A stretch of DNA of 64,000 nt from Sphingobacteriales bacterium (GTDB lineage: Bacteria; Bacteroidota; Bacteroidia; UKL13-3), in NCBI GenBank assembly GCA_021299635.1, contig JAJTFA010000001.1, forward strand, positions 283,842 through 347,841, in the 5' to 3' direction. Made by a program: the position numbers and the translations under genes. The notes beneath the pieces are model-generated. The model was not told the DNA's origin. It searched no databases and saw only the letters and a list, made by a program, of their open reading frames with translations. Positions 31,881 through 34,550 of the stretch are shown here, one piece after another; within the stretch, counting starts at the first letter, position 1, and each line of letters begins with the position of its first letter.

Positions 31881-32014
31881 ATCATAATCGTTGAAACATA
31901 ACCTAATCATAATGAGTAATTATTCACTGCGCTTAAGGGCTTTCGTAAGGTGGGAAGTTAAATTAAACAGATGGCATTCCTCAACGGAATAATATGCTCC
32001 TTACAAAACAAAAG

Positions 32015-32045
32015 CGAGCTTTATTAAAACTCGCTTCATTTGTTT
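32015..32045 (-). terminator. Terminator-like hairpin downstream of degenerate tRNA-Asp fragment (paralog of 32365-32395)
   Basis: agcgagctttattaaaactcgctt hairpin flanked by A/T runs; similar sequence context to hairpin after intact tRNA-Asp. Confidence 0.55.
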
Positions 32046-32062
32046 AACCAATATTGGTTATT

Positions 32063-32104
32063 TAGCGGTGCGGACGCCCCGAGTACTCGGGGGAACCCGC
32101 GACC
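32063..32104 (-). pseudogene. Degenerate duplicate of tRNA-Asp 3' portion (variable loop to acceptor 3' strand) with 16 nt palindrome ccccgagtactcgggg inserted in T-loop
   Basis: agcggtgcggacg[ccccgagtactcgggg]gaacccgcgacc aligns with tRNA-Asp tggcggtgcggacgggactcgaacccgcgacc; also 50 bp of downstream flank is duplicated. Confidence 0.8.
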
Positions 32105-32105
32105 A

Positions 32106-32357
32106 CTAGATTAAGCCCGAAATCCTACGGTAAAATGACTTGTTCTTTTGAGCCTTTAGAAACTTTTCTCTCCGCAACGCATCTACTTGTGAATCGAAAG
32201 TTTCATGATAAACCAGGCGCCACGGTTTTTTGGCCTTTGTTGATTTGGTTAGACCGGTATTATGCTCCAGTAATCGCCTTTCTAAAGCAGTTGTGTAACC
32301 TATATAAAATGAATCGAAATTATCTGAATAAAGAAGATAAACGAAGTGCATATGCAT
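32106..32357 (-). CDS. Mini GIY-YIG nuclease-family protein (~84 aa; start at MHMHFVYLLYS; upstream part of ORF track entry is read-through into tRNA-Asp)
   Basis: GIY-YIG motif VYLLYSDNFDSFYIGYTTALERRLLEHN..; start codon directly abuts the U-tract of the tRNA-Asp terminator; stop abuts the pseudo-tRNA fragment. Confidence 0.8.
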   Translation of the reverse strand: MHMHFVYLLYSDNFDSFYIGYTTALERRLLEHNTGLTKSTKAKKPWRLVYHETFDSQVDALRREKFLKAQKNKSFYRRISGLI

Positions 32358-32364
32358 AAAAAAA

Positions 32365-32395
32365 GCGAGCTGTTTAAAAAGCTCACTTTCTGTAT
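32365..32395 (-). terminator. Intrinsic terminator immediately after tRNA-Asp
   Basis: minus-strand RNA agugagcu-uuuuaaac-agcucgcu 8 bp stem followed by UUUUUUU. Confidence 0.7.
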
Positions 32396-32405
32396 TTAAC
32401 CATTT

Positions 32406-32482
32406 TGGCGGTGCGGACGGGACTCGAACCCGCGACCCCATGCGTGACAGGCATGTATTCTAACCAGCTGAACTACCGCACC
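32406..32482 (-). tRNA. tRNA-Asp (anticodon GTC), CCA encoded
   Basis: Manual cloverleaf: acceptor ggtgcgg/ccgcacc, D-arm gttc..gaat, anticodon stem catgc/gcatg loop cuGUCac, T-arm gcggg uucgagu cccgu, discriminator G + CCA; 77 nt. Confidence 0.93.
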
Positions 32483-33557: not shown

Positions 33558-33578
33558 AAAAGCCCCTTCGGGGCTTTA
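33558..33578. terminator. Bidirectional hairpin terminator (accA on + ; GIY-YIG/pseudo-tRNA on -)
   Basis: aaaaaaagccccttcggggcttt: 6 bp GC stem, A-run one side T-run other. Confidence 0.75.
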
Positions 33579-33700
33579 GTGGAGGATAACGGAGTCGAAT
33601 CCCGAAACAGTGCCTTTTGAAAAGGCATACTGTTTCGAGGACCCTCGAAAAATTAAGAAATGCAAGCATTTCTATTTTTCGGGGCCGATGACCTCATGAA
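33576..33700 (-). pseudogene. Duplicate of tRNA-Ala 3' portion split by an 85 nt multi-hairpin insertion in the T-loop
   Basis: tttagtggaggataacggagtcgaa [tcccgaaacag...tttcgggg] ccgatgacctc matches intact tRNA-Ala tttagtggaggataacggagtcgaaccgatgacctc exactly outside the insertion. Confidence 0.85.
33600..33684. other. 85 nt structured insertion element: outer stem cccgaaa/tttcggg enclosing three hairpins
   Basis: hairpins aaacagtgcctttt/aaaaggcatactgttt, ttcgagg/ccctcgaa, agaaatgc/gcatttct; closes on itself; located exactly at T-loop position of the pseudo-tRNA. Confidence 0.6.
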
Positions 33701-33956
33701 ATTTAAATCCATTCTTAAGACAAAAATCATTTTGTCTGGCTCTTGATTTTAAGTTTTTGAGTTTACGCTCCATACTCAAAGCTTCAGTTCTGGATTGCAC
33801 TGCAAGAGAAGCAAATAAAACCCATGGCACCGCAGTTTTAGTTGATTGGTTTTTACCTGAATTGTGTTTTCTTATTCTTTCAGTTAAATCAGCTGTCTGG
33901 CCGATGTACCTTTTATCAGTAGAATGGGAATAGATTATGTAAACCCAGTATTTCAT
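33672..33956 (-). CDS. Mini GIY-YIG nuclease-family protein (94 aa), paralog of 32106-32357
   Basis: MKYWVYIIYSHSTDKRYIGQTADLTERIRKHN GIY-YIG motif; ~40% identical to the first copy; start codon 5 nt after tRNA-Ala terminator U-tract; last ~9 codons are encoded by the insertion end plus tRNA-derived ccgatgacctc. Confidence 0.8.
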   Translation of the reverse strand: MKYWVYIIYSHSTDKRYIGQTADLTERIRKHNSGKNQSTKTAVPWVLFASLAVQSRTEALSMERKLKNLKSRARQNDFCLKNGFKFHEVIGPEK

Positions 33957-33961
33957 TAATG

Positions 33962-33982
33962 AAAAAGGCCCAATGGGCCTTT
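33962..33982 (-). terminator. Intrinsic terminator immediately after tRNA-Ala
   Basis: aggcccaatgggcct 6 bp GC stem followed by uuuuu on minus-strand RNA. Confidence 0.75.
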
Positions 33983-33984
33983 AG

Positions 33985-34141
<157 letters not shown>

Positions 34142-34225
34142 AATTTTTTTTCTTCACTGATGACCTTCCCGATTTCATCGGGACGCTCTAGCCATCCCGA
34201 TTATGATCGGGAGAACTAATCCCCC
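34142..34225 (-). repeat. Pseudo-tRNA unit 2 (near-identical tandem copy of unit 1; D-loop hairpin tcccgatcataatcggga)
   Basis: ~95% identical to unit 1 over 83-84 bp, head-to-tail. Confidence 0.85.
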
Positions 34226-34237
34226 TTGGGGAGGCGG

Positions 34238-34267
34238 CAAATATATGAAGTAAGTTTTATTGTGCAA
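34238..34267 (-). promoter_or_regulatory. Bacteroidota sigma-A type promoter (TTG-N19-TATATTTG) upstream of pseudo-tRNA units and tRNA-Ala
   Basis: minus strand TTGcacaataaaacttacttcaTATATTTG ending 12 nt before pseudo-tRNA unit 2; same architecture as tRNA-Asp promoter. Confidence 0.5.
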
Positions 34268-34550
34268 ATTTAAACAGCACAATAATAAGCCCGTAAATAA
34301 GCGTAGATAGAATGATACCTCTGGCTATATAAAGCTTATCCTTGTTTAAAAACAGATAGAATAATCCCAGGTTTATTACTGCACATAAGCTCAACAAGGG
34401 TGATAATAGTTTTTTTGAAATGGCAAGGTCTAAAAATTCCATAAGCCCGCTGTGCCTGAATTCTGATAGGTAGAATCCAAGCGCACCCAGTAGTGGTCCG
34501 ATTAAACCTACAATAATTCCAATAGCTATATGATCTTTAATGTTGCGCAT
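34257..34550 (-). CDS. Small membrane protein (97 aa, 3 predicted TM), hypothetical
   Basis: hydrophobic segments; overlaps surE stop region; no known motif. Confidence 0.5.
   Translation of the reverse strand: MRNIKDHIAIGIIVGLIGPLLGALGFYLSEFRHSGLMEFLDLAISKKLLSPLLSLCAVINLGLFYLFLNKDKLYIARGIILSTLIYGLIIVLFKFAQ

Follow-up and report, generated by a model that had tools for sequence, protein, structure and literature searches.

In a 64,000-nucleotide (64-kb) stretch of the genome of a Sphingobacteriales bacterium (assembly GCA_021299635.1, contig JAJTFA010000001.1, positions 283,842 to 347,841), hereafter called the window, a GIY-YIG nuclease gene lies between an intact tRNA-Asp gene and a disabled copy of part of that same gene. 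We refer to this unit as module A. To judge from its sequence, and with about an even chance of our being right, module A is a copy of a widespread selfish cassette of ~330-370 bp that lives in tRNA transcription units and behaves in a homing-like manner with no integrase. Such a cassette would be composed of an 80-90-aa GIY-YIG nuclease without a DNA-binding domain and two direct copies of the host tRNA, one intact and the other, designated tRNA*, a pseudo-copy that harbors a palindrome, designated P.

Module A is read on the minus strand. The intact tRNA-Asp(GTC) was recovered at 32482-32406 by ARAGORN and by Rfam (67.6 bits), exactly where the original prediction had placed it. Downstream of it lies terminator 1 (32386-32358), formed by six pairs (GTGAGC/GCTCGC, one of them G-T), a 10-nt loop and a T7 tract. 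An intrinsic terminator had been predicted here, and its hairpin and T-tract are indeed present, but it is weak and a consensus scan made no call on the minus strand. The ATG of the GIY-YIG ORF (32357-32106; Pfam PF01541, E = 2.4e-15) is the base immediately following the last T of this tract. The start and the domain are thus as first described, while the length is 83 aa plus stop instead of 84 aa. The ORF stop is abutted by tRNA*, TGGTCGCGGGTTC[CCCCGAGTACTCGGGG]CGTCCGCACCGC (32105-32065), a copy of tRNA-Asp positions about 45-76 that is split by P. P (CCCCGAGTACTCGGGG, 32092-32077) is a perfect 16-nt palindrome of family F1 that takes the place of the T-loop bases GAGTCC, which agrees with the earlier report of a palindrome at the T-loop position. 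The sequence CCCGAGNNCTCGGG occurs only once in the window, at this tRNA* site. The repeat extends beyond tRNA* into a duplicate of the downstream flank of the tRNA. A second copy of ~30 nt of tRNA and ~50 bp of flank had been proposed; it is present, and its extent is corrected to positions about 45-76 and ~55 nt of flank. The flank copy behind tRNA* (flank 2) includes a further perfect palindrome, AACCAATATTGGTT (32059-32046), and a strong terminator, terminator 2 (32037-32011; 12-pair stem and T-tract). The copy behind the intact tRNA (flank 1) is set apart from it by a 9-nt indel that takes away half of this second palindrome.

The similarity of this region to the tRNA was assessed by local alignment against 1000 shuffles. 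When the region after the ORF was aligned to tRNA-Asp alone, a score of 41 was obtained, compared to a mean of 14.5 and a maximum of 26 for the shuffles (z = 11.3). With the downstream flank of tRNA-Asp included, the score rose to 71.75 (shuffle maximum 25.75, z = 22). Only the shortness of the fragment speaks for a chance similarity or an assembly artefact at a repeat, and that reading has practically no probability left: none of the 1000 shuffles reached the observed score, contrary to the shuffled-control outcome that would have refuted the original prediction, and seven independent assemblies of this organism (L001-L007), as well as dozens of other genomes, show the structure.

The GIY-YIG gene is the only ORF between the repeats, and the neighbors of the module are accA and a dihydrolipoyl dehydrogenase gene. 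No tyrosine or serine recombinase was found between the repeats, and since the repeat is split by P and reaches into the flank, there are no exact att repeats. The insertion-like layout that had been described, with an intact tRNA rebuilt and a disabled piece of tRNA displaced, therefore stands, as does the lack of an integrase. No intron family was found even at E <= 1, and the tRNA is continuous, so that module A does not have the makeup of a group I intron. The tRNA*/P region matched no known RNA family in Rfam.

The module A protein contains a GIY-YIG domain only. PF01541 covers residues 4-74 of 83, and no other domain was detected. The protein has VYLLY and YIGYT motifs, and residues Y7, R28, H32 and E64 do not vary across 32 aligned homologues. 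An AlphaFold2 model (pLDDT 94) displayed the elements E-E-H-H-E-H-H. Sequence matches to solved structures were obtained with 1YWL (E = 7.6e-12), 1ZG2 (E = 2.2e-10) and SLX1 (1e-4 to 1e-6), the nearest being the UPF0213 proteins EF2693 and BH0048 and the next SLX1. When Foldseek was run with the model, BH0048 came first and then SLX1 (TMq 0.70-0.72, 34-36% identity), compared to TMq 0.54 and 15% identity for I-TevI and 0.58 and 14% for UvrC. Because the model fits SLX1 better than I-TevI, we place the protein with the structure-specific nucleases and not with the homing enzymes; from sequence and model, it is assigned to the UPF0213/SLX1-like GIY-YIG clade, apart from the Seg/I-TevI homing clade. 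It is not SLX1 proper, as the 83 residues include no C-terminal RING/zinc-finger domain, and they leave no space for the DNA-binding domain of a homing endonuclease either. Matches to homing families were weak and confined to the N-terminus (TIGR01453, E = 1e-3; a PHROG homing-endonuclease family, E = 9e-5, for the protein of module B, described below). Comparison of the ORF with that of L008, a sister species with 91% DNA identity to the window organism, gave a dN/dS of 0.15 (dS 0.73, versus 0.31 for accA), which argues that the ORF codes for a constrained protein.

A profile search with this protein family collected 8264 protein clusters (50% identity) at E <= 1e-10. Defence and toxin-antitoxin models of PADLOC produced only marginal, partial matches (E >= 2e-4, ~30 residues). 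Some of the database 'proteins' are 166-214 aa long and comprise two GIY-YIG domains (P0034, P0035 and P0036), and many others have N-terminal extensions of 20-60 residues; these entries are probably an annotation artefact, gene calls that cross stop-free pseudo-tRNA spacers in arrays.

We know of no established function for bacterial UPF0213 proteins, which resemble the module A protein most closely in sequence and structure and are of the same size. The housekeeping UPF0213 genes differ from module A in having no adjoining tRNA gene. In Bacillus subtilis, for instance, yazA (L185, NZ_AP028965.1, 1256-3138) overlaps trmNF and rsmI in the operon trmNF-yazA-rsmI, with no tRNA gene adjoining. 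Since trmNF encodes a tRNA(Val) m6A37 methyltransferase, this operon is a possible older functional tie between the nuclease clade and tRNA biology.

The same arrangement recurs well beyond the window. One genome per GTDB species was scanned by pattern and tblastn with an alignment of close homologues as the query. The scan yielded 516 confirmed relatives, of which the best 80 by score were retained as the related loci (233 kb). Their hosts are Bacteroidota, Ignavibacteria, KSB1, Acidobacteriota (including the class Aminicenantia), Patescibacteria and some metagenome-assembled genomes of Gammaproteobacteria. The ORF is adjoined by a same-strand tRNA, called by ARAGORN, in 68 of the 80 loci, and in 58 of them the distance is at most 160 nt. 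Contig ends or scoring errors account for the 12 loci without a tRNA, and the 10 loci with a longer gap are mostly inner units of arrays, with a scoring slip in one case (L014). A pseudo-copy of the same tRNA was detected in 64 of the 68 loci (median z = 18.5), usually across the ORF from the intact tRNA. These pseudo-copies are near-identical to the host tRNA except for 6-13 nt of one helix strand, which are swapped for a GC-rich palindrome of ~16 nt; outside the palindrome they show no random decay. In this clade, then, the association of mini GIY-YIG genes with tRNAs that had been suspected is essentially constant, with a fragment of the same tRNA before or after the gene.

As a control, 80 metagenome loci centered on accA (383 kb) were analyzed. 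They contained 2 GIY-YIG matches in total and no palindrome motif, and 16 of 18 tRNAs had no pseudo-copy. The control locus L155 (minus strand of the locus) has a pseudo-tRNA-Asp at 1-122, after a tRNA-Asp (123-197) and a terminator, in which the 3' strand of the anticodon stem and the variable loop are swapped for another hairpin, GTCTCGTC...GACGAGAC, and the contig stops before a possible ORF. This hairpin may represent a further family. In L115 (1800-1880), a 5' fragment of tRNA-Asp (positions 3-28) is located just upstream of an intact tRNA-Asp, with no palindrome and no GIY-YIG ORF; a cassette since lost may have left it behind.

Two mirror forms of the arrangement were observed. Among the loci with a close tRNA, 29 have the order tRNA-ORF-tRNA*, as in module A, and 29 have the order tRNA*-ORF-tRNA, in which the ORF occupies the 5' leader of the tRNA and often has its stop codon inside the intact tRNA. 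In nine of these (L019, L024, L038, L044, L049, L052, L054, L063 and L068) the stop is the TAG at tRNA positions 8-10, a 10-nt overlap, and in five others (L021, L026, L039, L050 and L079) it falls in the D loop. RNase P cleavage of such a precursor would remove the stop codon of the ORF, giving a non-stop mRNA and a low level of protein. In module A, the sole evident promoter is a strong promoter-like site upstream of tRNA-Asp (32531-32504), TTGACA-16-TATATT, which has 11/12 consensus matches, overlaps a Bacteroidota-type TAtaTTTG and is conserved in L008. Expression of the ORF would therefore have to ride on the tRNA promoter, in the window through read-through of the weak terminator 1, and at mirror loci by virtue of the position of the ORF between the promoter and an essential tRNA.

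The commonest form of the palindrome is TCCCGAG-NN-CTCGGGA. The strict motif CCCGAG-NN-CTCGGG was counted 75 times in the related loci (233 kb) and not once in the controls (383 kb); the window has a single occurrence, in module A. P is identical in L008. Across the family, the pair just outside the palindrome core co-varies (T:A in 39 unique sequences, C:G in 10), while the center is free. The position within the tRNA varies: the T loop in module A and in L008-L013, the D arm in L030 and L039, the 5' strand of the anticodon stem in the tRNA-Val loci of Patescibacteria, and the 3' strand of the anticodon stem with the variable loop in L019, L021, L024 and L044. The palindrome can lie on either side of the ORF. 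Other clades have other palindromes, TCCGCC-N3-4-GGCGGA at the tRNA-Arg(ACG) loci of Acidobacteriota and CCTGCCTGCCGGCAGGCAGG in another tRNA-Arg clade. When the proteins were clustered, clade, palindrome family and tRNA identity were seen to vary together and the tRNA arms to be always host-specific, which indicates that the palindrome travels with the ORF and that the tRNA parts are local. We conclude that the palindrome is a conserved, clade-specific cis element.

This conclusion bears directly on the scenario favored in the original prediction, a one-step integrative insertion into the T arm of the tRNA with att-like duplication, in which the palindrome is a passive lesion that confers immunity to cleavage. 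The order of tRNA, ORF and displaced 3' fragment is what such an insertion would leave, empty sites exist, and P wrecks the T-loop motif that is recognized by SegB-type enzymes (PMC2330249). However, the repeat takes in ~55 nt of non-tRNA flank with the terminator and, in L008, 28 codons from the start of another ORF copy, and it is for this reason a tandem unit and not an exact att-type duplication. Nor is P an incidental disabling lesion, for a passive scar would drift, whereas the same 14-16-nt sequence is found in several phyla, at four tRNA positions and on either side of the ORF, and co-varies with the protein clade. The adjacent intact tRNA retains the same, unaltered T arm; the locus thus lacks immunity, and this speaks against a simple protection of the site. 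We regard a one-step insertion as unlikely.

The form in which the palindrome would be recognized can be narrowed only in part. In the second module of the window (module B) and in the two loci L183 and L184, the feet of the hairpin stems are shared, which hints at recognition of a stem-loop. Recognition of the stem foot alone, considered from the bulged hairpins of the module B type, was rejected because the spacer of the main palindrome family is 4 nt in 93 of 113 sites. That spacing makes a rigid duplex palindrome an equally possible form of the target. A natural P-like target was also looked for in tRNA-Asp, where CCGGAGGTCGCGGG (positions about 39-52) matches P at 10/12 bases; the best match averages 8.5/12 for tRNA-Asp and 7-8 for other tRNAs, and the site is kept only as a weak lead. 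A role of P as an anti-deletion 'poison', by which recombination on the wrong side of P kills the only tRNA, was rejected as its main role because in many loci the greater part of the homology is found on the viable side of P. Palindromes in the variable region can mimic the variable arm of a class II tRNA: the long variable arm of a Melioribacter tRNA-Ser(CGA), CCCGAGTAATCGGG on the tRNA strand (L067, 671-760, minus strand), has 11/12 matches to the palindrome consensus, and ARAGORN calls a palindrome-bearing tRNA-Asp copy in L026 a 79-nt tRNA.

The palindrome could instead act as RNA. A hairpin-bearing, tRNA-like transcript would then partner the protein as an antitoxin-like or regulatory RNA, much as in type III toxin-antitoxin systems, and the tRNA copies would serve transcription or processing. 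The ORF has no promoter of its own and begins right after a T-tract, or lies in a tRNA leader with its stop inside the tRNA; tandem hairpin-bearing repeats are found upstream in module B and in L040; the hairpins fold far better than shuffles; and the central dinucleotide of the palindrome is purine-biased on the sense strand (12 versus 3). All of these would suit an RNA module. On the other hand, the hairpin precedes the ORF in one half of the loci and follows it in the other, no toxin-antitoxin or defence model and no Rfam family was matched, and GIY-YIG enzymes are, to our knowledge, DNA nucleases. A sense-strand RNA hairpin should also prefer G:U, and the stem mismatches are 6 G:T versus 12 A:C, so that strand asymmetry, in these small numbers, lent the RNA hairpin no support. 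Since an RNA module also leaves the exact copying of the neighboring tRNA unexplained, we consider it improbable.

The only other tRNA in the window, tRNA-Ala(GGC), bears a second module of the same design, module B (33559-34268), likewise on the minus strand. The intact tRNA (34058-33984; ARAGORN, Rfam) is preceded by two tandem pseudo-copies of its positions 1-50 (84 and 83 nt, 34225-34059), in each of which TCCCGAT-N3-4-ATCGGGA hairpins (fold z = -5.9 as single-stranded DNA) stand in for the D loop and for all 17 nt of the anticodon arm. It is followed by a terminator (33980-33962) and by a 94-aa GIY-YIG ORF (33956-33672) with 38% identity to the module A protein. The 3' end of this ORF runs through a tRNA-Ala fragment, GAGGTCATCGG, into the first of two hairpins, and its last seven codons, EVIGPEK, are kept at the C-terminus of a 65%-identical homologue (P0033). 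A pseudo-copy of the 3' part of tRNA-Ala (33695-33580) contains the two long, bulged hairpins (33684-33642 and 33640-33601; fold z = -6.5) between the 5' strand of the T stem and the T loop, and is followed by a second terminator that duplicates the tRNA-Ala flank (33577-33559). Stem feet and single-base bulges of this pseudo-copy are those shared with L183 and L184 (65% protein identity); the inner hairpins differ. Hairpin-bearing pseudo-copies thus flank the intact tRNA-Ala on both sides. A tblastn search of the 64-kb window found no GIY-YIG gene other than those of modules A and B.

The units also vary in number and in presence. Several hairpins or several ORF copies were seen in 44 of the 80 related loci. 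The arrays of L060 and L023 have periods of 368 and 332 nt, respectively, with units that are 97-99% identical. In L018 and L040, some units retain tRNA*, the palindrome and only the last ~20 codons of the ORF; L017 has a solo tRNA*-terminator unit; and copy number differs between congeners, as in L019 and L023. Empty orthologous sites, which it had been proposed to look for, were found at the accA-tRNA-Asp locus of L134, L146, L154, L163 and L165, each with a single terminator and no cassette.

Comparison with L008 revealed an uneven pattern of divergence. Identity is 93.8% for accA and 94.9% for the module B ORF (3' part), 98.7% for tRNA-Asp, 77.1% for flank 1, 82.1% for the module A ORF and 96.8% for tRNA* with the palindrome and flank 2. 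Flank 1 and the ORF therefore constitute a divergent patch (77-82%, against a background of ~94%) that is edged by tRNA-Asp on one side and by tRNA* and flank 2 on the other. From these identities, the stretch between the two tRNA-derived repeats has a history unlike that of its surroundings, and the patch could have arisen by exchange of the cassette via the repeats or by differential loss of units from an array in the ancestor. The values for flank 2 (96.8%) and flank 1 (77%) fit a foreign inserted end and a native displaced end, yet the two flanks are alike in L008.

These dynamics weigh on the view that the gene is a resident, non-mobile host nuclease of the UPF0213 type, co-transcribed with tRNAs, for example for the processing of structures at highly transcribed tRNA genes, and that the copies are decaying tandem duplications of the tRNA produced by unequal crossing-over and quasi-palindrome correction. 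Vertical inheritance of both modules links the window organism and L008, purifying selection acts on the ORF, housekeeping UPF0213 genes do exist, as yazA in its operon with a tRNA methyltransferase gene illustrates, and tandem tRNA-Asp genes are common in these lineages. However, the distribution is patchy with empty orthologous sites, near-identical tandem units coexist with ORF-deleted derivatives, the pseudo-copies lack random decay outside the palindrome, and the divergent patch is bounded by the repeats. The occurrence of the same palindrome across tRNAs and phyla is beyond the reach of local quasi-palindrome correction. A resident host gene is accordingly, in our estimate, an improbable explanation.

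A selfish cassette, the reading that we prefer, could operate as follows. The predicted nuclease would break or nick tRNA-gene DNA or the palindrome. Homologous recombination, with the tRNA-derived repeats as portable arms, would then, once DNA has been transferred, install a copy of the cassette in tRNA alleles that lack it, and the cassette would in this way spread horizontally. Since the arms are tRNA sequence, they would become host-specific. By analogy with SegB, the same repeat-based recombination would expand and contract the cassette in tandem, and by analogy with mobile ORFs of mitochondria, one functional tRNA would be regenerated each time. P is most likely the putative cognate site of the nuclease, which would read it as a duplex palindrome or as a stem-loop or cruciform, and it may in addition keep the spare tRNA copy non-functional and non-identical.

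Several of these steps have counterparts in known systems. SegB of phages T4 and T6 is a free-standing GIY-YIG homing endonuclease that resides in phage tRNA clusters and recognizes a conserved T-arm motif (PMC2330249), and together with homologous recombination it gives rise to tandem tRNA+segB units, including shortened segB copies (PMC13096335). The cassette resembles it as a GIY-YIG gene embedded among tRNA genes and co-localized with tRNAs of many isotypes. In contrast, SegB has a DNA-binding region and is phage-borne, whereas the module A protein is a bare catalytic domain of another clade and chromosomal, and a palindrome that disables a tRNA copy is a feature of the cassette that has not been described for SegB. 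Mobile endonuclease ORFs in fungal mitochondria (Allomyces atp6; Glomus atp6, atp9, cox2 and nad3) create gene hybrids and have been interpreted as homing with co-transfer of flanks; the Glomus atp9 ORF is of the GIY-YIG type (PMC3630166). Their order of gene core, inserted 3' end, endonuclease ORF and displaced native 3' end is that of module A, and their endonuclease ORF can likewise be in frame with, or abut, a piece of the gene. They differ in that their hosts are protein-coding genes and the ORFs are 3-5 times larger, with no palindrome, mirror form or tandem arrays described. Integrase-borne islands and prophages carry a recombinase and measure 9 kb to >100 kb (PMC9897764), whereas the cassette has none and measures ~0.3 kb, its repeat is split by a palindrome and reaches into the flank, and its 5' and 3' versions are equally common.

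Structure-reading and hairpin-associated nucleases offer a different set of likenesses. SLX1, which cleaves branched and stem-loop DNA, possesses a RING domain and depends on SLX4. Cutting of stem-loops would suit a hairpin or cruciform partner; the RING domain and SLX4 are absent here. The REP/RAYT, IS200/IS605 and ToxIN systems likewise link a small nuclease gene to hairpins that are short, conserved and GC-rich, and ToxIN has the order of repeats, leaky terminator and nuclease gene. Unlike REP/RAYT and IS200/IS605 elements, the cassette has no HUH/Y1 transposase and its hairpins are not dispersed, none being found in the window outside modules A and B. Unlike ToxIN, it encodes no ToxN-type RNase and has no PADLOC membership.

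A number of observations weigh against a mobile cassette driven by its nuclease. The nuclease activity of the 83-aa protein is a prediction from its sequence. Were the tRNA the target, a carrier would have no immunity, since the intact gene next to the cassette is unchanged; were the cut made at P, breaks would tend to remove P through conversion from the intact copy. We worked through a break at P and a break at the equivalent position of the tRNA, and neither yields a self-consistent drive without extra assumptions. Because no fully self-consistent drive could be worked out, we put the mechanism no higher than an even balance of belief and doubt. A vector was not found: tblastn searches of phage and plasmid collections returned only housekeeping UPF0213 genes (35-42% identity), and none of 15 exact matches to P in IMG/VR had a GIY-YIG gene or tRNA nearby, so that the motif is unlinked to the cassette in that collection. 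The relatives with empty sites share only 66-77% AccA identity with the window organism, no presence/absence polymorphism was seen among the near-identical L001-L007, all of which have the module, and in L008 the two modules occupy the same loci as in the window. On a short timescale, mobility is thus at most putative. L008 moreover retains a 28-codon remnant of the start of a second ORF copy that resembles the window ORF in places, which fits differential loss from an array of diverged units. Finally, the 80 related loci are the top-scoring relatives of the module A protein and not a random sample of small GIY-YIG genes.

Outside the modules, a sub-threshold match to the Flavo-1 RNA motif (31.4 bits versus a gathering threshold of 42; E = 4.5e-4) was noticed at 31872-31794 on the minus strand, ~140 nt past terminator 2. 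Flavo-1 scored above threshold in L069 (147-213), ~1.3 kb from the cassette, and no consistent link to the cassette was found across 20 loci.

The original prediction held the element to be undescribed, and a full-text literature search, which covered everything but subscription-only literature, found no description of such a module. Known in principle are endonuclease-driven, homology-dependent insertion with terminal duplication (PMC3630166) and the targeting of tRNA genes by a GIY-YIG enzyme (PMC2330249). What is unprecedented is the combination of a bare catalytic domain, a conserved (putative cognate) palindrome, tRNA genes as hosts, two mirror forms and a spread over several phyla. A review of prokaryotic tRNA fragments names two sources only, integrase-mediated integration and CRISPR (PMC9897764), and the cassette would add a third route; it would also account for recurrent tRNA-gene fragments and for contig breaks beside tRNAs. 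For the many genes annotated merely as 'GIY-YIG nuclease family protein', it would, if true, supply a function and a genomic logic wherever the architecture is shared. The palindrome is a concrete candidate substrate for the question of how a bare GIY-YIG domain gains specificity, and a nuclease gene of 250 bp that comes with a cognate site of 16 bp would merit attention as a minimal tool. We put forward only tentatively, as a possibility that we ourselves rather doubt, that these ~350-bp units are the smallest autonomous mobile elements of bacteria, in which a bare SLX1-like nuclease domain and its cognate hairpin move without a recombinase, the nuclease reads DNA structure (the hairpin or the secondary structure of the tRNA gene), and the conserved tRNA provides self-renewing homology arms. 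If true, tRNA genes would be universal landing pads across phyla, used by a mechanism distinct from those of homing endonucleases with DNA-binding domains, integrases and transposases.

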